From positions 884-64,883 of the forward strand of contig JBBKWI010000139.1 in assembly GCA_037968875.1 (NCBI GenBank): a stretch of DNA of 64,000 nt, read 5' to 3'. Position 1 is the stretch's first letter. The number at the start of each line of letters is the position of its first letter. This DNA is from Candidatus Sericytochromatia bacterium. Its GTDB lineage: Bacteria > Cyanobacteriota > Sericytochromatia > UBA7694. The translations under genes were made by a program, and so were the position numbers. Below are positions 9,384-47,083 of this stretch, in pieces. Below the pieces are notes generated by a model. The model was not told the DNA's origin and did no database searches. It saw only the letters and a program-made list of their open reading frames with translations.

Positions 9384-12095
<2,712 letters not shown>

Positions 12096-23540: not shown

Positions 23541-25400
23541 ATGTCTGGACCTTTGCGTTCTTTTTTAATTGGTCTGGGTCTTAGCTTATTTGTATTTTTG
23601 ACCCTGGGCAGCTGGTACTGGTTGCAGTTTAGGCAGCCACCGACCGAAGATCTGGCGCGTTTGCGGGCCCAATTGCCGCAATGGGTTGAGCTGCTTGAAA
23701 AGCAAGACGATCAGGCCCTGGAAGCCAGCCTGGATCAAGTGCCGATGCAAATCGTGGTGGCTGACGCCGGACAGCAGGCCCTGACCAGTAATCTGGCGGA
23801 TGGGCATCGTTTGCGCCAGCAACGGGGCCAGGATGCACTTAAGAATGGCGTGCTGACGCGCTTTATTGAAAAGAACGCCTATCGTTTTTATTATCAGCCG
23901 CCGCTGAACTGGCTAGACCTCAATTTACTATTCCCACTGATTTTTGGACTTTTGTTGGGATTGGCTGCTGCCCTCTGGGATCTCTATCAAAACCTGCGCT
24001 TAGAAGACCAGACCGACACCTTAATTTTGCTCTCACGAGGAGAAGATTCCAAGCAAAAAACCCAGGCCAAAATCGAAGCCAAGAGCGAAGCCCGCCTGGA
24101 TGCCCTGCGTGATCAAAACAATCAACTCAAAGCCCAGTTACTGGAGCTCAAAACTCGCCCTGAGCCGACAGTACAAAAATCGGTGTCGCTGCCAACAGCT
24201 AATCCAGCCGCCGCTTCTGCAGTGCTGGCTGAAACAGACCCGGCACTGGTCAGGCGCTTAGAGCAAGAGCTCAAGCAAGTCAAGCAAGAGCTGAATGATA
24301 GCAAACTGAAATTACAAAGCGCTCAGAAAACCGCTAGCCTGCAAAATCAAGAAAACCAGCAATTAAAAAAGCAGGTCGATGACCAGGACGATGAGCTCAA
24401 TCGCCTGCACCAGCATCACCAGGAGCTCAATCAGGAGCTAGAGAAAGTTCGCGAACGCATGCAGGAAGTCGAACAACAAGCAGCGCAATTGCCTGAAGCC
24501 TGGCAAGAGATCGAAAGCCTACGCAAAGAGCAAGAGCGTCTCTTAGAGAAAGAAGGTCGCTGGCAAGACGAAAAACGTCGCTTGATGGGACTTTTTCATG
24601 AAAAAGTCGAGCTGCTGCAAAAAAATCAAGAGCGTCTCAAAAATGCCCGCCAGAAAATTAACGAGCTCTCAATGGCTTACAAAAAACAGCTCGAAAAAAT
24701 TCTCCATCTGCCCGAAGACCTACAGCATGCCCAGGAGTTACTCGAAAGCCTGATCGACCAAAAAGACCTGATCGAGCATGACAATCTGCGCCTGCATTTG
24801 GAGCAGGCCGATAAGCAATCTGAGATCAAGCGCTTGCAAATCGAACTGCAAGTGCGTGCCGATCGCTTAGAGCATGCCCGACGCCTGATCGAAGAACTCT
24901 CTGGCAGCTTGCGCAGCAACCAACGGGAGCTCTCGCTACTGAGCGAAACCTTAGAAGACAAATTGCTCGATCTTGATCGCATCCAGGATCTGCACGATGG
25001 AGACAGTCAGGTGCTCGAAGAAGTCTTGCAAGAGCGAGATCAACTGCGCTTAGAGCTCAGTGAGCAAGAAGAAGTCATTGCCCAATTGCAAAGCGACAAG
25101 AGCCAGTTGCAAGCCCAAAAAGAGGCCGCTGAAGGCCAATTGCAAGATGTCGACATGCAATCTTATCAGCTCGAAGTTGAGCAATTACGCCAGTCTCTCA
25201 AATTGATGGGCTTGCAACAGCAGCGCCGTACCCAGACCGTTGAGAATCTCAAAACCAAGCTCGAAGAGAGCGAAGTACTCTATGGCAAGCTCAAGCGCCA
25301 TGCCGAAAAACAAGAGCGCGAAATTCACAATTTACAGGAAGATATCGACCGCCACCGCTCTGAAATTGAAATTTTAGAGACCAAACTCTACGGCGGCTAA
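23541..25400 (+). CDS. Membrane-anchored long coiled-coil protein
   Basis: N-terminal TM helix followed by about 450 aa of heptad-rich Q/E/L/K sequence. Confidence 0.6.
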   Translation: MSGPLRSFLIGLGLSLFVFLTLGSWYWLQFRQPPTEDLARLRAQLPQWVELLEKQDDQALEASLDQVPMQIVVADAGQQALTSNLADGHRLRQQRGQDALKNGVLTRFIEKNAYRFYYQPPLNWLDLNLLFPLIFGLLLGLAAALWDLYQNLRLEDQTDTLILLSRGEDSKQKTQAKIEAKSEARLDALRDQNNQLKAQLLELKTRPEPTVQKSVSLPTANPAAASAVLAETDPALVRRLEQELKQVKQELNDSKLKLQSAQKTASLQNQENQQLKKQVDDQDDELNRLHQHHQELNQELEKVRERMQEVEQQAAQLPEAWQEIESLRKEQERLLEKEGRWQDEKRRLMGLFHEKVELLQKNQERLKNARQKINELSMAYKKQLEKILHLPEDLQHAQELLESLIDQKDLIEHDNLRLHLEQADKQSEIKRLQIELQVRADRLEHARRLIEELSGSLRSNQRELSLLSETLEDKLLDLDRIQDLHDGDSQVLEEVLQERDQLRLELSEQEEVIAQLQSDKSQLQAQKEAAEGQLQDVDMQSYQLEVEQLRQSLKLMGLQQQRRTQTVENLKTKLEESEVLYGKLKRHAEKQEREIHNLQEDIDRHRSEIEILETKLYGG

Positions 25401-25405
25401 ACGTA

Positions 25406-26470
25406 TTAGTAGGGCGGCAAGAGACGGCGAAAGCCGTGTAAGAGTACCAGTACCAAAAAGATCAGATTGCGTAGAATCAAAACCGGGATATTCAAGAAAA
25501 CCTGCGACTCTTTTTGCCCCTGCTGATGCACCCGCGCCAAACGATAGGCCACCTTGCGCATCCAGGAGACCGAGCGCGGCCATTCCATCAGACCCTCAAC
25601 CCAGGCTTCAGGTAGCTCATGATAACCGACCCGCGCCCCCATAATCGCCCCCATAATCGCAGCTGTGGTATCCGTGTCCCCGCCGCAGCGAATCGTGGTT
25701 AAAACCGCTACCCGGAAATTATCCTGATAGGTCAGCCAGATATGAATCACGACCGGTACCGTATGCATAATAAAGCCGCTGACTCCATCCTCACAATTGA
25801 GACGCTTCACAAATTCTTCAATCGTTTCTTTGCGCTGCACCGAAACCACAGTTTTGCGCATCAGCACAATGAAGTCACTCTCATCATTCTGGCAGACTTT
25901 TTTGAGCGAAATATAAAAGGCCTCTGGATCAACAGCCTCTTTTTGCGAAGACATCCAGGCAGCTAGAGCAACAGCCATAGCACCATATTCGGCACGGGGA
26001 TCCGTATGGGTAATACGGGTCGAGGCCCGCACATATTCCCGCAATAATTGAAAGTCGAGGCCATAGACCACGCCCAAGATCGCTGCCCGCATGGCCGGGC
26101 CATTGCCCGCCGAAAAAACACCGCTTTTTTGGGGCGGGATCCCCAACCACAGACGCAGGCACGCTTTTAAGGTCGCCAACCCCGTGCCTACGGGCAAACC
26201 CAACAGCCAGAAACGCAGTTTCCAGGCCATTAAGTGGGTGAAATGCTGCGGATCGTCGGGGGCGCTAATCAGAGCCTGGGCCACCATGCAAGTGTGCTCT
26301 GTATCGTCAGAGACCATGCCCCGCTCTAAAAAGAAATGGTAATGCTCCAGATCAGGATAGATCAGCCATTGACGTTCGCGAGAAAGGCCTTCACAGACCA
26401 AACCGAGAGCATCTCCAATCGCCGTGCCAACCAAACAACCCGCCAGGGCATCCTCCAGGTCAAAGCTCAT
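25406..26470 (-). CDS. ADP-ribosylglycohydrolase family protein with C-terminal membrane anchor
   Basis: DraG/ARH signatures GCLVGTAIGDALG (N-terminal) and GGDTDTTAAIMGAIMGARVG (C-terminal); hydrophobic tail LILRNLIFLVLVLL. Confidence 0.8.
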   Translation of the reverse strand: MSFDLEDALAGCLVGTAIGDALGLVCEGLSRERQWLIYPDLEHYHFFLERGMVSDDTEHTCMVAQALISAPDDPQHFTHLMAWKLRFWLLGLPVGTGLATLKACLRLWLGIPPQKSGVFSAGNGPAMRAAILGVVYGLDFQLLREYVRASTRITHTDPRAEYGAMAVALAAWMSSQKEAVDPEAFYISLKKVCQNDESDFIVLMRKTVVSVQRKETIEEFVKRLNCEDGVSGFIMHTVPVVIHIWLTYQDNFRVAVLTTIRCGGDTDTTAAIMGAIMGARVGYHELPEAWVEGLMEWPRSVSWMRKVAYRLARVHQQGQKESQVFLNIPVLILRNLIFLVLVLLHGFRRLLPPY

Positions 26471-39403: not shown

Positions 39404-41170
39404 ATGGACCTACAAGATCAACAAGAGATACACAACGAACAAGTAGAAGATGAACTGTACCGTGCCTATTTAGACTGCTTATTTTTAGACCGCGAACAAA
39501 TCCAGGATATTCTGGCACAGACTCAGACCTATGAAAGCGCTTACCAGGCAGCCATTAATCTCTTAGAGCACATGAAGCTCGATCCCAACCTGGCTTCTCT
39601 GAATCTGCCAGACACTCAAACATTGACCCCCAAGCAATTGCCCCTGTACCTGGACTCTTTGCACCGTGCCCTCTGGCGCCTCTACAAGCGAGGCAAACAG
39701 GTCGACTTTTTGCAATCGATTCAACAAGAGCTCTCTTATTTATTACCCAAGCTCTGGCAAGCGCCTCAGGAACAAAACCAACAACTCAAAAAATTAAAGT
39801 CTCATCTATTAGAGAATGCCGAGCGTTTTGGTAATCGTTCTCTGGCAGCAACCTTAAATCTGCCAACAGAGACTGGCTTTTCCACTATCTTAAAAGCTGT
39901 TGATCAATCTCTGGCCAAAGCCTGGCCCAAACAATTGGGCCTGATCATAAGCCAGGATCAAGCCTTGATCCAACAGATTCTCGCCAATAGCAATGTCTCT
40001 GGTATTGACTGGCAAGTCTTTAGCAACGTCAGCGAAGCTCTGCAAGGAAAATTTTACCAGGATCCCAGCATGCTGATCATTACTTTAGACCAGCCGCGCT
40101 TTTCTTTGGATCGTTTACTCGATACCTTTTCATACTCTGAAGCAATCGCCGTCGTACACGATATGGCCAGCGTACAAGAAAAAATGCTACCTGGCCGCAT
40201 CAGCCATATCCTCGAAGAAAAATGGCTCTCGCGTTTTCTGAGCGGTCTGATTCAACGCAATCTGCTGCAACGCTGGCGTGATGCTCGCTTCCGTAAGCTG
40301 GATTTTTTAACAGGCTTGTCGTCTTTGATTGGCATCAGCGAAAAATACCAGCAATTGCAAGAACTCGTGGCCCGTTTAAAAGGTCCCATGTGTGTCGCCA
40401 TTTTGGATCTGCCGCTCTTGTCTGAGATCGAAAAGCAAGAAGGCCCTTACTTAACAGGCGAATGGCTCAAATCCTTTGGTCGATTTTTGGGCGGTAGCCT
40501 GCGTGGCTCTGATTGGGTCGGACACTGGTCACCAGATAAATTTATATTGCTCTTGCCCCAGACCAATATCCAGGGAGCCGTGATAGCCCTCGAGCGCACC
40601 CTCGACAAAATGAAACGTGAGCACCCCTTACCACTGGATGGCGACGATCCCCAGCGCGTCTTATTCCGAGCCGGCATTACCATGGCCGATAGCCAAATGA
40701 GCTTTGAGCAAGTCTTATTTGAAGGTTATCAACAACTCAAACAGGCGCGTAGCCAGCCAGCAAATCAGATCCTGGCCTATGACGCTAATGCCCTCGAAAC
40801 CGCCTTGCGACCGCATATTTTATTACTTGATGACGATACCATCATCCAGGAAATGCTGCGCTTTATCTTCTCGCGTGAAGGCTACGAAATCACCCAATTA
40901 ATGGACGGCTCTCAGGTACTCGAAACCCTGGAGAAAAAGCCCGTTTCACTGGTGGTGCTCGATCTCAAGATGCCCGGCATGGATGGCTTTGAGGTTTTAG
41001 AGAAAATTCGCTCTCAGCGTCAATATGACAATCTGCCAGTGGTAATACTGTCGTCAATGAAAGGCGAAAGCGATCTCGAACGCGGCTTTGAACTCGGTGC
41101 TGATGATTTTATTCACAAGCCTTTTTCACCGACTGAGTTGGTGATTCGCGCCAAGCGTTTTTTACGTTAG
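39404..41170 (+). CDS. Three-domain protein: unknown N-terminal domain, degenerate GGDEF domain with intact I-site, C-terminal receiver (REC) domain
   Basis: GGDEF fold recognisable (DFLTGL, RGSD-WVGH-WSPDKF in place of RxxD-xxxx-GG[DE]EF, AGITMA). REC with DDD pocket, phosphoacceptor D in VVLDLKMPG, SSMKG, HKPF. Confidence 0.8.
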   Translation: MDLQDQQEIHNEQVEDELYRAYLDCLFLDREQIQDILAQTQTYESAYQAAINLLEHMKLDPNLASLNLPDTQTLTPKQLPLYLDSLHRALWRLYKRGKQVDFLQSIQQELSYLLPKLWQAPQEQNQQLKKLKSHLLENAERFGNRSLAATLNLPTETGFSTILKAVDQSLAKAWPKQLGLIISQDQALIQQILANSNVSGIDWQVFSNVSEALQGKFYQDPSMLIITLDQPRFSLDRLLDTFSYSEAIAVVHDMASVQEKMLPGRISHILEEKWLSRFLSGLIQRNLLQRWRDARFRKLDFLTGLSSLIGISEKYQQLQELVARLKGPMCVAILDLPLLSEIEKQEGPYLTGEWLKSFGRFLGGSLRGSDWVGHWSPDKFILLLPQTNIQGAVIALERTLDKMKREHPLPLDGDDPQRVLFRAGITMADSQMSFEQVLFEGYQQLKQARSQPANQILAYDANALETALRPHILLLDDDTIIQEMLRFIFSREGYEITQLMDGSQVLETLEKKPVSLVVLDLKMPGMDGFEVLEKIRSQRQYDNLPVVILSSMKGESDLERGFELGADDFIHKPFSPTELVIRAKRFLR

Positions 41171-41182
41171 CTTTAGAGCCCG

Positions 41183-42601
41183 CTAGGTAGCTTTTTCAAA
41201 GCCCTGGCGGGTCATTTTGCCCCAGCTATGCTTACGTGAGAACAGGCGTTTGATCATGCCGCGCACGCGCCAAACCGTTAGCAATTGCCGGTAGCCAAAA
41301 CTTTCGAGAATGGCGGTTAGCATCAAAATCATTAAATCCTTAACATTTTGATAGCGGCGAAAGGTCAGCTCTTCTAAAGCCACCGCAAAGACCGAAATAA
41401 TGCTGCCATAAACAAAGGCTATCAAAAAGAAGGCCAGGGCAAAGCGAGGCGATAAGCCACCGGTCAGCAACAAACCAATCACAGCGATATAACCGACAAT
41501 CTCTAAGAGAGGACCTAACATTTCAAAGAAAAAGTAAAAAGGGAAAGCCAGCATGCCCACACGGCCATAACGCGGGTTAAACAACATGCGGCGGTGTTTG
41601 AGCAAAGCCTCCATCAACCCCCGCTGCCAGCGATCGCGCTGATTACCCAGAATCGCAGGACTTTCGGGGCACTCGGTCCAGGCGACGGGATCCGGGATAA
41701 AAGCAATATCATAGGGAATTTTTTGCTCGATCGCATGGCGGTGCAAGCGCACAATCAATTCCATATCTTCACCAACGGTTTTGCTATCATAGCCCCCGGC
41801 CTGTGCGACAAGATTTCGGCGAAAGAGGCCAAAGGCACCCGAAATAATAATCGTCCCCCCAAGCACACTCCATCCCATACGACCCGATAAAAAGGCCCGC
41901 AAATATTCCAGGACTTGAAAACGAGCCCAAATCGACTGAGGCAGACGGACTTCAACCACTTCACCCCGATTTACTTTACAGCCATTGGCGATACGCACAA
42001 TCCCACCAGCAGCAATCGTCTCACCGTTCTCCAGGAAGGGGCGTACCACGCGCAAAAGGGCGTCGCGCTCAAGTAAGCTATCGGCGTCAATTGCACAAAA
42101 AAGCGGCGTATGTGAAAAATTGATCCCCACATTCAAGGCATCTGCCTTGCCGCCATTCTCTTTATCGATCACCCATAAATTGGGGAAGCGTTCACTGCGA
42201 TAAACCCGTTTGATCGGCTGGGTAGGAATATCTGTGAGTGGCATACGTGAAATGGGCTCAAGTTGGTAAGCTTCTTTGAGGCGTTGCAAGGTAGCGTCTT
42301 TAGAACCATCGTTGATCACCAAAATTTCATAATCTGGATACTGCAGATTCAATAAAGCGCGAATCGAATCAATGCAGGTACTTTCCTCATTGAATGACGG
42401 CACCAGCAAAGAAATCGGCGGTGCACCGGCTGAATTGAGCAATTGCTCAATATTAATCGACTTTAAACGCCGTGAATAACGCCGCAAAGCACCAAATGAG
42501 ATCAAACTGGTCAGCAAATAAACCGAGTTAAGCACAAACAAGTAAACCAGGTTCAAAACATTCATAACAATCAAAAAAGTGGTTAACATAAACGCAGGCA
42601 A
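41183..42601 (-). CDS. Processive family-2 glycosyltransferase, PgaC/IcaA-like polysaccharide synthase
   Basis: Two N-terminal and three C-terminal TM helices; DDGSKD, DAD, GEDMELIVRL and Q-R-D-R-W (NQRDRWQRG) motifs of processive beta-glycan synthases. Confidence 0.85.
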   Translation of the reverse strand: MPAFMLTTFLIVMNVLNLVYLFVLNSVYLLTSLISFGALRRYSRRLKSINIEQLLNSAGAPPISLLVPSFNEESTCIDSIRALLNLQYPDYEILVINDGSKDATLQRLKEAYQLEPISRMPLTDIPTQPIKRVYRSERFPNLWVIDKENGGKADALNVGINFSHTPLFCAIDADSLLERDALLRVVRPFLENGETIAAGGIVRIANGCKVNRGEVVEVRLPQSIWARFQVLEYLRAFLSGRMGWSVLGGTIIISGAFGLFRRNLVAQAGGYDSKTVGEDMELIVRLHRHAIEQKIPYDIAFIPDPVAWTECPESPAILGNQRDRWQRGLMEALLKHRRMLFNPRYGRVGMLAFPFYFFFEMLGPLLEIVGYIAVIGLLLTGGLSPRFALAFFLIAFVYGSIISVFAVALEELTFRRYQNVKDLMILMLTAILESFGYRQLLTVWRVRGMIKRLFSRKHSWGKMTRQGFEKAT

Positions 42602-42730
42602 GCCTTTACAAACGATAAGATTAAAAGAAATAATCGCAAAATAGCAGCCCCTTAAGGCTGAAATTTTGATAGCATAGACTAGAGTATATCAGGCTCTGAA
42701 ACGAAAGAAACAAAACGGTACTCTTAATCA

Positions 42731-44326
42731 ATGTGGTTTGAAGAATTAATCCAGTGGCTTTGGAAAAACCCCCTCCTACTCGGACTGGCGGCCTATATTG
42801 CAGTCTTGCTTAGCGTGGCTTTGGCATTGTTTTTGATGACCCTCAGCCTACATCGGGCCAATGAGCGCAAGGCAAAGCAATGGCAAATGATGGAAGATCG
42901 CTGGCAGCCTCTGATGATGAAAGTACTCTCTGGTGAAAAATGGCCGGACTATATTCACAGTCAGATCAAATCCCATGAAGTTTTCTTTTTTATCGATTTT
43001 CTGATGCGCTATGCTGAAAAGCTGCAAGGTAACGCCCGCGAAATGGCGACACAACTGGCAGCGCCTTATCTTGGGCTCTTACTTAAGCGCATGAACAGAG
43101 GGGACGCCGAACAGCGAGCACGGGCCATTTTGACCCTGAGTATCCTGGCTCCTGAGCAGCACAATGAACGCCTGGCACATGCTCTGGAAGACGAATCCCC
43201 CCTGGTCGCGATGCTGGCTGCCCGATCACTTTCTGAAAATCAATCCCTGGAATATTTGAAACCCATTTTAGACAAAATGCCCCGCTTTCGTTCCTGGAGT
43301 CAAAACTTTTTGATTTCCATGCTCAAATCTCTGGCACAAGAGCAGCCGGAAGCCTTACGAGAGGCCCTGCTGGATCCCAGCCAACCCGATTGGGTTAAGA
43401 CGGTAATTTTAAAGGCCTTAACAGAGCTAAGTGATTGGCAAGCCCTGCCCCTGGCAACCCAATTTTTAGAAGAGAATGGTGATCGCGAATTACAGGCTGC
43501 TGCGCTGCAGTTTATTGCACGCATCGGCCACGCGGGCCTGGTTGACTTGGTGCGTAAAAAGATCAGCAACCCTGACTTTGTCATTCGTTTAAACGCCGTG
43601 AAAGCGCTCTCCAGCCTGGGTGATTTATCCGATGGCAAACAATTGATTGCGCTCTTAAAAGACGATAGCTCCCAATGGATCGCTTATCAGGCAGCCCAGG
43701 CCTTAAAGATCACCAAAAATTTAGAGCCCCTCTACGAAGTCGCCTCTAGCCAGCATCCCCGCAAAGAGCTTGCCAAAGAAGTTTTATATGACCTCGATAG
43801 CTGGGAAACAATTGAATTCTTGATCCGTTTGCCAGGCTTTGTTGAATTTGTCCCGCAATGGATCCGCTCAGTCAAACGGCGAGATGTGCGGGATGTCTGG
43901 AAACAAGTCCAAAACGCTTTGCTCTCACCTCAGGCCCATAATGATGTGAAGCAAAAAATTGCTTATGAATTAGACAACAAAGCACCCGAGTGGCTTTTTG
44001 GAGCGCTCTCAGATGCCTTTTTGGAGCACCGCAACGCCCCTCCAAAATATTTAAATCAGGCCCTGATCAATACCAATTCGGAACAGGCTGCGGAGCTTTT
44101 TATGACCTGGTTTTATGAAATCGATGCAGCCGATGCGCAGTACCATGTTTTCTGTTTGCTCGCCGAGCACCCGCGCTCTGAGTCTGCCGGCTTTTTTAAA
44201 CAGCTCCAAAAAAAGATCAAGGAGCAACCCGATCGTTTCGCTCAGCACAGCAAAGCCAATCAAAAAGACATTCAGGCCAAAACCGACCGAGCCATTCATC
44301 AAAGTTTATTAAATACGAGTACTTAA
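42731..44326 (+). CDS. Membrane-anchored HEAT-repeat (PBS-lyase-like) protein
   Basis: N-terminal TM helix; multiple HEAT/PBS repeats (ARAILTLSILAP...PLVAMLAARSL, RLNAVKALSSLGD...WIAYQAAQAL). Confidence 0.7.
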   Translation: MWFEELIQWLWKNPLLLGLAAYIAVLLSVALALFLMTLSLHRANERKAKQWQMMEDRWQPLMMKVLSGEKWPDYIHSQIKSHEVFFFIDFLMRYAEKLQGNAREMATQLAAPYLGLLLKRMNRGDAEQRARAILTLSILAPEQHNERLAHALEDESPLVAMLAARSLSENQSLEYLKPILDKMPRFRSWSQNFLISMLKSLAQEQPEALREALLDPSQPDWVKTVILKALTELSDWQALPLATQFLEENGDRELQAAALQFIARIGHAGLVDLVRKKISNPDFVIRLNAVKALSSLGDLSDGKQLIALLKDDSSQWIAYQAAQALKITKNLEPLYEVASSQHPRKELAKEVLYDLDSWETIEFLIRLPGFVEFVPQWIRSVKRRDVRDVWKQVQNALLSPQAHNDVKQKIAYELDNKAPEWLFGALSDAFLEHRNAPPKYLNQALINTNSEQAAELFMTWFYEIDAADAQYHVFCLLAEHPRSESAGFFKQLQKKIKEQPDRFAQHSKANQKDIQAKTDRAIHQSLLNTST

Positions 44327-44397: not shown

Positions 44398-45681
44398 ATG
44401 TTTAAACTTATTTTAGCTGCTTTAGCAGCGACACAGCTACAACAGGCCCAGGACGCTTTACAAAGCAAAGATTATACCAAAGCCACAGCGATTTATCAGA
44501 CGATCTTACAAGAAGATCAACAATCTTACGAGGCGCTCTATGGTCTGGCCCGCTCTCAGGCTTTTGCAGGTGACTATGCCACTGCTGTGGAAACCTATAC
44601 CCAGGTTTTGGCACTTTACCCCGATGACCCGGATGCCTTATTTGGTCGTGGTCAGGCTTATATCTGGCTCAAGCAAGATGATTTAGGCCAGACAGACTTA
44701 AGAAATGTTCTACTCAAGAATCCCGGCTACCAGGATGCCTGGCAGGGCCTCGCCAATCTATACCGTTGGCGGGAGCGCACAGATGACGCCATCGCCCTTT
44801 ACGAAGAATGGCTAATTGCTCACCCCGATCGTTCGGAGCCACTGGTCTCACGTGCCTATTGGTATTTTCAACAACGCCAGTTTAATTTGGCCCGAACAGA
44901 TCTGATTCAGGCCCGAGAACTCGGCGCCAATGCGGAGCAAGTCGATCCTTTACTGACACGCCTCAACCGCCAACCAGGGGCTCTACCCTGGGAAGTGCGC
45001 GCGATTTATGAGTTTCAGGCTTTTTCCGAAAACAATGTACCCTGGCATACAGGGACAGGAGCCGTGCAGTACACCTTTGATCGCGGCAGCGTCTCCTTAG
45101 AAGGACTGGCGACCCAGCGCTTTGGCAAAAACGATCAAGGGCTGGCAGTCGATAGCTTTTTAGATCTCTGGCCAGGGGCCTATGGTAACTTCCGTGTGCA
45201 AGGCGTGCTGGATGCCGAGGTCATGCCTCAATGGGATCTGTTAGGCGAAATTTATCAGAGCTTTTTAGATACCTGGGAAGTCTCGGGCGCGTATCGCTTA
45301 ATGAATTACCCCACGAACAATGTGCATATTATTCATGGCAGTGTCGGCAAATATATCGGAAATTGGTATCTCAGAGCCCAGCCGCAATTAATTTTATCTC
45401 CTGAGGGTCCCGGCGGAATTATGACTCTCTGGGGCCGGTACTACTATAATACAGTTGATGATTTTGTCGAGTTACGCACAGGCTTTGGTCGACGTATCGC
45501 GGTCATTGGCAGCGACGATGGCGGCGCCCAATTGCAGGGTCAAAGTAATATCTTTGGCGTCCTCACCGGGCAGTATTTTATCAACCCTCAATTGGGCTTC
45601 CTGGGAACTCTCAACTATAATCATGATGATTTGTTTCCCAATCGTTTTGGCTTCAGTCTAGGGACCAAATATCGCTTTTAA
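44398..45681 (+). CDS. Outer membrane protein: N-terminal TPR repeats plus C-terminal YaiO/PgaA-like beta-barrel
   Basis: Signal peptide; about 4 TPR units (AIYQTIL..., AVETYTQVLALYPDDPDALFGRGQAY..., AWQGLANLYR...); C-terminal amphipathic beta-strand region ending in FGFSLGTKYRF (terminal Phe). Confidence 0.75.
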   Translation: MFKLILAALAATQLQQAQDALQSKDYTKATAIYQTILQEDQQSYEALYGLARSQAFAGDYATAVETYTQVLALYPDDPDALFGRGQAYIWLKQDDLGQTDLRNVLLKNPGYQDAWQGLANLYRWRERTDDAIALYEEWLIAHPDRSEPLVSRAYWYFQQRQFNLARTDLIQARELGANAEQVDPLLTRLNRQPGALPWEVRAIYEFQAFSENNVPWHTGTGAVQYTFDRGSVSLEGLATQRFGKNDQGLAVDSFLDLWPGAYGNFRVQGVLDAEVMPQWDLLGEIYQSFLDTWEVSGAYRLMNYPTNNVHIIHGSVGKYIGNWYLRAQPQLILSPEGPGGIMTLWGRYYYNTVDDFVELRTGFGRRIAVIGSDDGGAQLQGQSNIFGVLTGQYFINPQLGFLGTLNYNHDDLFPNRFGFSLGTKYRF

Positions 45682-45760: not shown

Positions 45761-47083
45761 TTGGGATGGTTTTTTATGCGGCGTTTTTATTTTGCTTTGA
45801 CTTTTGTTTTACTTGCTTGCAATATGAATCCGAGCCCGACGACTACCCCGCAAACCTCTCCGTCACCAGGTTCCACTCCTGAGCCCATTGTAACCAGCCC
45901 GAGCTCCAATCCAGCTCCTGACCAAACCCCTCTGCCGCCCCAAATTGTGAACAATCTGCTGGCGAATCCCGGCGTCGAAAGCAGCGCCGATGGCATCAAT
46001 CCCTTGCACTGGCAGCATGACAGTTTTGGCTCCAACCAGACGCAATTTGCACTCAAAAGTGGAGATGCCTTTGAAGGTAAACATTACCTGTCGATCCAAA
46101 TGGCTTCTTATCAAAACGGTGATGCCAAGTGGGTCTTTGACCCCTTGCCTTTAAAAGAAGATGAATGGTACGAATACAGCACCGCTTATCGCGCAGATGG
46201 GCGCAATCGGCTGATTTGGTCTTGTACGCATTCTGATGGCTCCCGTCGTTTTCGCACCAATAGCCAAAGCCATGCTAATGCAAGCTGGGAAACAAAAAAA
46301 ATCAGATTTTATCTGCCACCAGCAAGTGACTGCAAGGTCTCTGTTTTGCATGTGATCGATCGAGCTGGCTATCTTGATACAGACGCCCATGCGCTCTATA
46401 AAGTCCAGGCCCGTCCATTGGCTCAGCCTTATGTGAGTATTAGCTTTGATGATATCTGGGCCACAGCAGCCACCGTTGGGGCTCCTGAGCTCGAAAAACG
46501 CGGCTGGAAGGGTAGCTTTTATGTTACTGGCGTCTATGCCCGTAACAGCGATACCGACTACGCCAAAGTCGATCAGATCAAAACCCTGATTGCCACCGGT
46601 CATGAGATTGGTTCTCACGCCGAAAACCATATCGCAATGTCTAAATTAGATATTACAGGCCTGGATGATCAATACCGTAATAACCAGGCCTACCTTAAGT
46701 TTTTAGGTGCTGAGCCCCTGGGCATTGCCTATCCCTTTGGTGATTTTGACGGTCAGGTCGAAATCGAAGGCCATCGCTTTCACAACTACGCGCGCACCAG
46801 CTTAGAGGGTTTAAACGATGCCGGCTTCGACCCTTTCCGTCTGCAAATTTTCCCGATCACCAATGAAACCACCGTCGCTGAAGTTAAGCAGTATATTGAT
46901 GATGCCAAGCGCACCTCAACCTGGCTGATCTTGCTCTATCATGATCTCAAAGAAAGCGGTGGCGATCCCAATTACACCACTTCAGTCAATGATTACCGAG
47001 AAGTTTTAGATTATTTGCAAAAACAAGAAATGACGGTCAAACCCGTCAAGGATGTTTTAAAAGCTCTCGGTAAACTCAACTAG
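45761..47083 (+). CDS. Polysaccharide deacetylase (CE4/NodB-homology) lipoprotein
   Basis: Lipobox LLACN, Pro-rich linker, N-terminal beta-rich domain, CE4 motifs ISFDDIW and GHEIGSHAENH. Confidence 0.75.
   Translation: MGWFFMRRFYFALTFVLLACNMNPSPTTTPQTSPSPGSTPEPIVTSPSSNPAPDQTPLPPQIVNNLLANPGVESSADGINPLHWQHDSFGSNQTQFALKSGDAFEGKHYLSIQMASYQNGDAKWVFDPLPLKEDEWYEYSTAYRADGRNRLIWSCTHSDGSRRFRTNSQSHANASWETKKIRFYLPPASDCKVSVLHVIDRAGYLDTDAHALYKVQARPLAQPYVSISFDDIWATAATVGAPELEKRGWKGSFYVTGVYARNSDTDYAKVDQIKTLIATGHEIGSHAENHIAMSKLDITGLDDQYRNNQAYLKFLGAEPLGIAYPFGDFDGQVEIEGHRFHNYARTSLEGLNDAGFDPFRLQIFPITNETTVAEVKQYIDDAKRTSTWLILLYHDLKESGGDPNYTTSVNDYREVLDYLQKQEMTVKPVKDVLKALGKLN

Follow-up and report, generated by a model that had tools for sequence, protein, structure and literature searches.

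A membrane-anchored HEAT-repeat protein linked to a processive glycosyltransferase and a GGDEF-receiver regulator in a module shared by several bacterial phyla

The locus and its genes

The window analyzed here is a 64,000-nucleotide stretch of DNA from a Candidatus Sericytochromatia bacterium (assembly GCA_037968875.1, contig JBBKWI010000139.1, positions 884 to 64,883 of the forward strand), a member of the non-photosynthetic sister lineage of the cyanobacteria. Our subject is an open reading frame (ORF) at 42,731–44,326 on its forward strand, which starts with ATG and codes for a protein of 531 amino acids (aa) with an N-terminal transmembrane (TM) helix followed by HEAT repeats, hereinafter the TM-HEAT protein. 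Divergent from it, across a spacer of 129 bp, is the gene for a membrane-integrated, processive family 2 glycosyltransferase (GT2) synthase (41,183–42,601, reverse strand; the likely start is the ATG at 42,589). Beyond the latter lies the gene for a soluble regulator (39,404–41,170, forward strand) made up of an N-terminal region of ~295 aa, a degenerate GGDEF domain and a C-terminal receiver (REC) domain. On the other side, the TM-HEAT gene is followed after 71 bp by a gene for a protein with an N-terminal TPR region and a YaiO-type β-barrel (44,398–45,681, forward strand) and, after a further 79 bp, by one for a polysaccharide deacetylase of carbohydrate esterase family 4 (CE4; 45,761–47,083, forward strand). 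A preliminary description of the locus had noticed a membrane-anchored HEAT protein with a single N-terminal TM helix, flanked by a divergent GT2 synthase and by porin and deacetylase genes. The ORF, the Pfam HEAT_2 match, the AlphaFold2 (AF2) model and hydropathy bear out the first, and the neighbors are all where it placed them; absent from it was the REC/GGDEF protein, the invariant third partner.

Fold and architecture of the TM-HEAT protein

The ORF is clearly a genuine gene and not a chance reading frame, as it has 20 full-length relatives with 38–77% identity (word-indexed search of 5.8 billion proteins; one is from Candidatus Blackallbacteria) and hundreds of more distant ones. Three stretches of its product match Pfam HEAT_2 with 70.5 bits (cut-off 27.7; E = 1.5e-19), and the AF2 model built with 20 homologs is an unbroken α-solenoid (mean predicted local distance difference test score, pLDDT, 89.5; predicted TM-score, pTM, 0.71), in which one long N-terminal helix (aa 14–66) leads into ~14 helical hairpins. 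The match above the gathering threshold and the tandem-hairpin solenoid place the protein in the HEAT_2 or PBS-type HEAT superfamily (PF13646). A profile search of PDB sequences recovers alphaRep proteins with E-values down to 7e-32, and hence the repeats are of the PBS-lyase HEAT type. Matches to the fold are with HEAT/ARM-type solenoids of intracellular assemblies or with designed repeat proteins.

A profile search and an alignment of 277 sequences divide the protein into two parts. The family core (aa 1–356; 42,731–43,798, forward strand) comprises the TM helix, a juxtamembrane helix with the conserved residues R/H41, N44, W51, E55, W58 and P60, and about nine HEAT hairpins, and is common to ~355-aa proteins of other phyla, which cover profile positions ~10–355. 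The C-terminal extension of 175 aa (aa 357–531; 43,799–44,323, forward strand) consists of further α-helical hairpins, modeled by AF2 mostly at pLDDT above 85, and has no match in Pfam at E ≤ 10. It occurs only in the type found in Sericytochromatia and Blackallbacteria, and column occupancy falls below 10% past aa 360. The lineage with this extension is also the one with the divergent HEAT/GT2 layout and with a regulator N-terminus devoid of detectable similarity to Hpt or REC domains; a co-adaptation of the extension with these two features is possible.

The TM helix (aa ~14–38; 42,770–42,844, forward strand) is the sole strongly hydrophobic segment of the protein (hydropathy 2.6). In a set of 265 family members, Lys and Arg number on average 0.9 in the 15-residue stretch preceding it and 3.9 in the 15 residues that follow, and the C-terminal flank is the more positive one in 98% of these proteins. 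By the positive-inside rule, the N-terminus is therefore expected to be outside and the HEAT domain is predicted to face the cytoplasm. In two family members, P0038 (from locus L022) and P0172, the TM helix is preceded by an SH3_3 domain, and P0038 in addition begins with a signal-peptide-like segment. A SH3_3 domain in this position is typically an extracytoplasmic arrangement; these variants fit the same orientation and imply a periplasmic sensor or anchor domain on a cytoplasmic adaptor.

The residues that are conserved specifically in this family and lie outside the repeat consensus (W51, E55, W58, P60, F87, G100, P112, F186 and W189) are concentrated in the juxtamembrane helix and the repeats next to it, from which we infer that this region is a candidate synthase interface. 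We also considered a ligand site formed by the Arg, Asp and Trp residues that are conserved throughout the family, and rejected it because these coincide with the PBS-HEAT repeat consensus. An enzymatic HEAT protein of the bilin lyase, deoxyhypusine hydroxylase or AlkD type was likewise rejected, with equivalog scores far under the cut-offs: for NblB/CpcE the window protein reaches 35 bits where 300 are required, and the family member P0030 25 bits where 330 are required. Reading of the family alignments gave no conserved His/Glu metal motif, and Pfam and NCBIfam detect no known motif or domain for binding cyclic di-GMP (c-di-GMP).

Phyletic distribution

The window-type TM-HEAT protein, with its 20 close relatives, is confined to Candidatus Sericytochromatia and Blackallbacteria, and when each GTDB species was scanned through one genome, nine loci were recovered, all in metagenome-assembled genomes (MAGs) of these two groups. 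The wider family extends much further. Searched exhaustively with a HMMER profile, a set of 1.84 billion representative proteins gives 383 clusters at E < 1e-30, nearly all of them the ~355-aa proteins, aligned over the family core with E-values of 1e-98 to 1e-67; at E ≤ 0.001 the HEAT profile gathers 14,140 representatives. Named members, taken from the names of a handful of MAG records, belong to Marinimicrobia/Fidelibacterota, Planctomycetes, Gemmatimonadetes/Longimicrobiales and Nitrospirae, and Omnitrophota are also represented. These proteins are annotated merely as “HEAT repeat domain-containing protein”, and neither Pfam nor NCBIfam offers a curated model specific to them, both giving generic HEAT hits only. 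We hence define a TM-HEAT synthase-partner family by the TM helix, the juxtamembrane helix, about nine hairpins and a neighborhood with GT2 and REC/GGDEF genes, all of which the window protein displays. The module formed with these neighbors is present in six or more bacterial phyla, and nearly all the genomes in which we see it derive from metagenomes.

Gene neighborhoods and co-conservation

We compared the neighbors in the window with those in other Sericytochromatia loci by tblastn. The GT2 (68–79% identical) lies divergently beside the TM-HEAT gene in all 12 distinct loci that have flanking sequence; the GGDEF-REC protein (35–60% identity) is found in most loci and the TPR-YaiO protein in about half. 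The closest relative of the window, locus L101, is fully syntenic with it up to the NDH-2 gene. Four contigs from Planctomycetes, Gemmatimonadetes, Nitrospirae and Marinimicrobia show another layout, with the genes on one strand in the order (Hpt-)REC-GGDEF-REC, TM-HEAT, GT2 and (TPR-)YaiO. The YaiO gene is missing from the Gemmatimonadetes contig (L018), and phosphorelay genes precede the module in three of the four contigs, being absent in that of Nitrospirae (L019). In these contigs and in the GT2-seeded loci described below, the TM-HEAT and GT2 genes either overlap by 4 bp or are 5–11 bp apart. Identities to the window proteins across phyla amount to 58–60% for the GT2, 32–41% for the TM-HEAT protein and 32–36% for the GGDEF-REC protein, which marks each of the three genes as orthologous.

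A metagenome scan with a 30-sequence alignment of the family as the query added 77 loci. The GT2 gene is directly downstream on the same strand in 61 of the 62 that have at least 250 bp of downstream sequence, the lone exception (L092) being a truncated TM-HEAT gene on a 1.4-kb contig, and a REC/GGDEF protein is encoded directly upstream wherever at least 400 bp of upstream sequence is available (61 of 61). A YaiO-like gene occurs in at least 15 of the 33 loci with enough flank, a frequency that is a lower bound given its detection by tblastn. For the reverse approach, three loci, one of them from Omnitrophota, were chosen from a search seeded with the GT2, and every one of these has the TM-HEAT gene immediately upstream of the GT2 as well as a YaiO gene. 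The linkage of TM-HEAT, GT2 and regulator genes is thus among the tightest that can be expected of genes that are not fused, and the co-conservation with the synthase that the preliminary description had proposed as a check holds in the Sericytochromatia, metagenome and GT2-seeded loci alike. The core of the module consists of these three co-travelling genes, to which the TPR-YaiO barrel is usually added. The TM-HEAT gene had also been described as the first gene of a porin/deacetylase operon; this is correct for the window, and not for the other phyla, where the order is GGDEF, HEAT, GT2 and YaiO, and the window and L101 are the only loci in which the deacetylase gene belongs to the cluster. 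The divergent layout is specific to Sericytochromatia, and the operon headed by the TM-HEAT gene is a lineage-specific rearrangement rather than an ancestral arrangement.

The synthase

The GT2 contains the motifs DGS, DAD, GEDMEL and QRDRW and a C-terminal SWGKMTR, which is similar to the (S/T)WGT(R/K) motif that chitin and hyaluronan synthases possess. In Pfam, it matches Glyco_tranf_2_3, Glycos_transf_2 and Chitin_synth_2. The AF2 model (pLDDT 86.9, pTM 0.86) is matched best over its full length in Foldseek by the Chlorella virus hyaluronan synthase (TM-score 0.70), followed by vertebrate HAS1, BcsA and fungal chitin synthases (Chs1). The D, DxD, GED and QxxRW motifs together with this fold match put it in the processive GT2 class of the hyaluronan synthases (HAS), chitin synthases and BcsA, in which a GT-A domain is fused to a transmembrane channel, and its identity to the orthologs in the other loci and phyla is 58–79%. 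The synthase had initially been called PgaC-like. PgaC_IcaA (TIGR03937) is indeed its best NCBIfam match, reaching 139 bits against a cut-off of 422, and with a hyaluronan synthase as the best match of the model, a label implying poly-N-acetylglucosamine (PNAG) is premature. Pfam finds no PilZ or other receptor domain in the protein, and only one long N-terminal helix precedes the GT domain in the AF2 model. Judging by this model, the enzyme looks like a self-contained HAS-like synthase-translocase. The want of a receptor domain, combined with a complete HAS-like model, favors a regulatory or adaptor role of the TM-HEAT protein over a channel-forming one.

The REC/GGDEF regulator

The regulator was delineated by Pfam matches to GGDEF and Response_reg and by motif alignments. 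In the window protein SPDKF occupies the position of the GGDEF signature, with RGSD, a version of the RxxD motif, at the I-site position five residues upstream; in the receiver, inspected by eye, the acidic pocket, the phospho-acceptor Asp, the Ser and the Lys are all kept. The window protein hence lacks the GG[DE]EF signature of an active diguanylate cyclase, and the signature is similarly degenerate in all Sericytochromatia. Among 57 module-linked GGDEF proteins it is canonical in eight, the others having decayed independently and by many routes, to AADEF, ATDEL, GGGDF, AGATF, SPDKF and further forms. RxxD is retained in all Sericytochromatia and some other lineages and lost in many, and some modules encode an active-type GGEEF signature with an I-site next door. 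The retention of the gene despite the decay of its GGDEF signature indicates that it is kept for something other than c-di-GMP synthesis, and the loss of RxxD in many lineages indicates that c-di-GMP sensing is not its universal role. A degenerate but persistent GGDEF protein fits a role in protein–protein interaction, which needs a docking partner, and the regulator is probably the key to the mechanism of the module.

Its N-terminal ~295 aa have no match in Pfam at E ≤ 10. Aligned by hhalign with the Hpt-REC N-termini of other phyla, the 295-aa Sericytochromatia region is collinear with them at a non-significant level (probability 0.12, E = 0.48), and that it is a degenerate Hpt-REC is a guess. 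In the Blackallbacteria locus L001, a hybrid histidine kinase with the architecture PAS-HisKA-HATPase-REC-Hpt (9,527–11,869 of that locus) is convergently placed right after the TM-HEAT gene, in the position of YaiO. At the corresponding place downstream of the TM-HEAT gene in L011, L013, L014 and L016, tblastn detects only the receiver segment of the kinase. This kinase of the Blackallbacteria-like clade is a candidate for the cognate kinase of the regulator.

Relationship to known exopolysaccharide systems

The synthase-dependent systems for cellulose, PNAG, alginate and Pel are the main models for the biofilm matrix, and each has its own accessory subunit coupling it to a signal. HEAT proteins are not known among the components of the PNAG, Pel and cellulose systems described so far. 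The preliminary description had made the same point, which agrees with a full-text literature search, covering few subscription-journal papers, that returned no description of the HEAT/GT2/GGDEF gene combination. Part for part, the genes in the window resemble PgaABCD, with a GT2, an inner-membrane partner, a TPR-containing outer-membrane porin and a lipoprotein CE4 deacetylase. They nevertheless fall outside the PNAG systems: to the low PgaC score can be added the mere 29.9 bits of the YaiO-type barrel against a cut-off of 366 for PgaA (TIGR03939), the best NCBIfam match of the deacetylase being HfsH-like (90 bits, cut-off 400), and the restriction of a deacetylase beside the module to the lineage of the window. 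PgaD, encoded after pgaC, is a small inner-membrane protein with two TM helices, while the TM-HEAT protein has a single one and a solenoid of ~490 aa, and matches no PgaD family in Pfam or NCBIfam.

The likeness to PelE, an inner-membrane protein with two TM helices and a cytoplasmic domain of TPR-like α-helical repeats that is thought to scaffold the Pel complex, is one of architecture only. The TM-HEAT protein has one TM helix, HEAT rather than TPR repeats, a GT2 synthase next to it and no pel genes nearby; the Pel synthase PelF is a soluble GT4 with export occurring through PelG. There is no sequence relationship between the two systems, and the regulator described here is soluble and carries a receiver domain. 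The TM-HEAT protein also differs from BcsB, which has a large periplasmic domain and a C-terminal TM anchor and to which it has no match, in that its TM helix is N-terminal and its domain is predicted to be cytoplasmic. Among the role analogies offered initially, that with BcsB is hence contradicted by the charge distribution; the better comparison is a cytoplasm-facing partner of the PelE, PgaD or BcsF type. The CpcE/F, NblB and alphaRep proteins are soluble, unlike the membrane-anchored and synthase-linked TM-HEAT protein, and most of the lineages hosting the module are non-photosynthetic.

A degenerate GGDEF domain has precedents in such systems: PelD is a degenerate-GGDEF receptor that binds c-di-GMP at its I-site, and BcsE, a soluble protein in which both the REC and the GGDEF domain are degenerate and which bears an RxxD c-di-GMP site, is recruited to the synthase in the inner membrane by the single-pass BcsF encoded immediately downstream of it (PMC7439463). 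In most phyla the module has a comparable succession of a REC/GGDEF protein, mostly degenerate, a single-pass TM-HEAT protein and the synthase, and we regard BcsE–BcsF as the nearest analogy with experimental support. The correspondence has its limits: BcsF is a short polypeptide without a HEAT domain or any sequence relationship to the TM-HEAT protein; BcsA has its own PilZ domain, in contrast to the GT2 of the module; the domain order of the regulator is degenerate GGDEF followed by REC, with an apparently intact C-terminal receiver, unlike BcsE; and no equivalents of BcsQ, BcsR or BcsB are seen in the module. The TM-HEAT protein is, in sum, homologous to none of PgaD, BcsB, BcsF and PelE.

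A last parallel is provided by the yaiS-yaiP-yaiX-yaiO cluster of Escherichia coli K-12, in which the YaiO barrel that gave the family its name is found beside the GT2-type YaiP and the putative deacetylase YaiS, in this case with neither a HEAT nor a GGDEF gene. Any relationship of these proteins to those of the window is remote: in an alignment of 331 positions, YaiP and the window GT2 share 25% identity, and the E. coli YaiO lacks a TPR domain and is not similar to the window barrel protein at the level of BLAST. In the K-12 chromosome (NC_000913.3, 380,069–384,616), yaiO stands with yaiX, yaiP (annotated as a glucosyltransferase) and yaiS (deacetylase) in an uncharacterized, polysaccharide-like cluster, where yaiX is an acyltransferase pseudogene split by IS2.

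Functional interpretation and alternatives

The reality of the gene, its fold and family, its predicted topology and the near-invariant linkage of three genes across phyla are the observations from which an interpretation has to start. They incline us, with some reserve, to the view that the TM-HEAT protein is an inner-membrane-anchored, cytoplasm-facing solenoid serving as an obligate accessory subunit of a so-far undescribed synthase-dependent exopolysaccharide module, in which it docks the regulator to the synthase. On wholly computational evidence, we infer the physical contacts, the direction of regulation and the polymer as follows. The TM helix and the conserved juxtamembrane helix would hold the solenoid on the cytoplasmic side of the membrane and against the synthase, where it could act as a docking platform bringing the soluble REC/GGDEF regulator to the enzyme. 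Phosphorylation of the receiver—together with c-di-GMP in those lineages in which the I-site or an active GGDEF domain survives—would then switch polymer synthesis on. The HAS-like GT2 might both polymerize and translocate the product, which would exit via the YaiO barrel, having been partly de-N-acetylated in the periplasm in the source genome. A more specific version, which we put forward tentatively, is that the GGDEF domain has been exapted as an interaction module of a phospho-regulated regulator and that the TM-HEAT protein is the transducer through which the phosphorylation state of this regulator gates the HAS-like GT2, with c-di-GMP as an optional, lineage-specific input. If so, uncultured phyla would widely possess a polymer synthase gated by a two-component system and largely independent of c-di-GMP.

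Several points weigh against the docking role. Gene order alone cannot tell an adaptor from a co-catalytic subunit, a stabilizer or an inhibitor. In L001 the GGDEF-REC gene is not adjacent to the HEAT-GT2 pair, and therefore the pair can be encoded without this gene nearby. Of the residues conserved universally, most (R129, D154, R286, D312, W316 and others) are those of the PBS-type HEAT structural consensus, as the strong matches to designed alphaRep proteins indicate, and hence mark no binding site. The cytoplasmic orientation follows from a single line of reasoning, the positive-inside rule, and the cluster members examined are all derived from MAGs or metagenomes.

One alternative is that the TM-HEAT protein is a co-subunit in the manner of PgaD, its TM helix packing into the bundle of the synthase and the pair forming an allosteric site, possibly for c-di-GMP, that stabilizes and activates the enzyme; the REC/GGDEF protein would then only supply or buffer the ligand and not dock on the TM-HEAT protein. 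There is precedent, in that work attributed to Steiner et al. in 2013 is said to have found PgaC and its small membrane partner PgaD to sense c-di-GMP jointly. The GT2 is the tightest neighbor of the TM-HEAT gene, with the 4-bp overlaps and the near-universal adjacency described above, it lacks a receptor domain and has just one long helix before its GT domain, and some modules do encode a GGEEF cyclase with an I-site next door. Yet the degeneracy of most linked GGDEF domains and the frequent loss of RxxD mean that c-di-GMP cannot be the universal signal, none of the known motifs or domains for binding c-di-GMP is detected in the TM-HEAT protein, the model of the GT2 is by itself like that of a complete HAS-type synthase, and a solenoid of ~320 aa goes far beyond the needs of a subunit that donates a helix. 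We consider this account unlikely. Rather doubtful, too, is a scaffold independent of signaling, which would oligomerize or position synthases (for instance, at the pole or septum) or recruit precursor enzymes. HEAT solenoids are generic scaffolds for protein–protein interactions, the fold matches are of the adaptor type only, the L001 pair manages without an adjacent GGDEF-REC gene and the Sericytochromatia-specific extension shows the solenoid surface to be evolutionarily plastic. Such a scaffold does not easily explain the immediate proximity of the REC/GGDEF gene in all 61 informative metagenome loci, where it is kept even after catalytic decay, and the neighborhoods inspected in Sericytochromatia and the other phyla include no conserved nucleotide-sugar pathway genes.

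The idea of a periplasmic, BcsB-like co-polymerase or guide that passes the nascent chain to the YaiO porin draws on the position of the TM-HEAT gene at the head of the porin and deacetylase operon in the window. It is very improbable considering the near-uniform charge bias that puts the domain in the cytoplasm, the lack of a BcsB or carbohydrate-binding domain in Pfam, the intracellular or designed nature of the matching solenoids, and the gene order in other phyla, which sets the TM-HEAT gene between a cytoplasmic regulator and the synthase and not with the porin. That a generic, unrelated HEAT protein came to lie beside the synthase by chance is scarcely credible: HEAT_2 proteins are certainly abundant and mostly uncharacterized, as the number of representatives gathered at the relaxed threshold attests, but the adjacency recurs in essentially every locus of six or more phyla, whichever of the two genes the search starts from, down to overlapping stop and start codons.

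The logic of synthase-dependent secretion is known, and what appears to be new is the type of accessory subunit and the mostly pseudo-enzymatic GGDEF regulator. The module would thus add to the known synthase-dependent systems a further one with a HEAT membrane subunit, a HAS-like GT2, a YaiO-type porin and a mostly non-catalytic GGDEF protein. Some of the very many unannotated HEAT proteins of bacteria would thereby acquire a function and the orphan family of YaiO barrels a suggested role, and the module would offer a compact cassette of three or four genes that lends itself to reconstitution for asking how a pseudo-cyclase response regulator controls polymer secretion.

Export, modification and regulatory regions

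The barrel protein, a candidate for outer-membrane export, was recognized by its matches to Pfam YaiO (E = 4.9e-25), TPR families and TIGR04390 (119 bits, cut-off 32); it is plausible that it is the export porin. The CE4 deacetylase (Pfam Polysacc_deac_1, E = 1.2e-14) is a probable lipoprotein with the lipobox VLLAC (MRRFYFALTFVLLAC), a Pro/Thr/Ser-rich linker and, ahead of the CE4 domain, an unassigned domain of ~150 aa. Its confinement, among Sericytochromatia loci, to the window and L101 marks it as a lineage-specific addition to the module. As such a deacetylase adjoins the module, the polymer in the source genome probably contains N-acetylhexosamine. Beside the module in the Omnitrophota contig L098 (9,087–9,495) there is a fragment of a glycoside hydrolase family 5 “Cellulase”, and in L099 (8,232–10,792) a protein with a weak CE4 match and a second, small GT2. 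The varying accessory genes hint at lineage-specific differences in the polymer or in the way it is processed.

The divergent intergenic region between the GT2 and TM-HEAT genes (42,602–42,730) was aligned with its counterparts in L101, L006, L008 and L015. A block of ~30 nucleotides, gaaattttgatagcatagactagagtatatcagg, at about 42,660–42,693 is conserved in all four, although the flanking TM-HEAT proteins are only ~55% identical to that of the window in three of them (77% in L101). It may be a promoter or operator of the HEAT-YaiO operon. A generic scan for promoters and terminators over 39–49 kb of the window found no more of them than expected by chance. The segments 1–2,000 and 24,001–26,000 stand out from the remainder of the window by unusually high AT skews (0.29 and 0.27, respectively).

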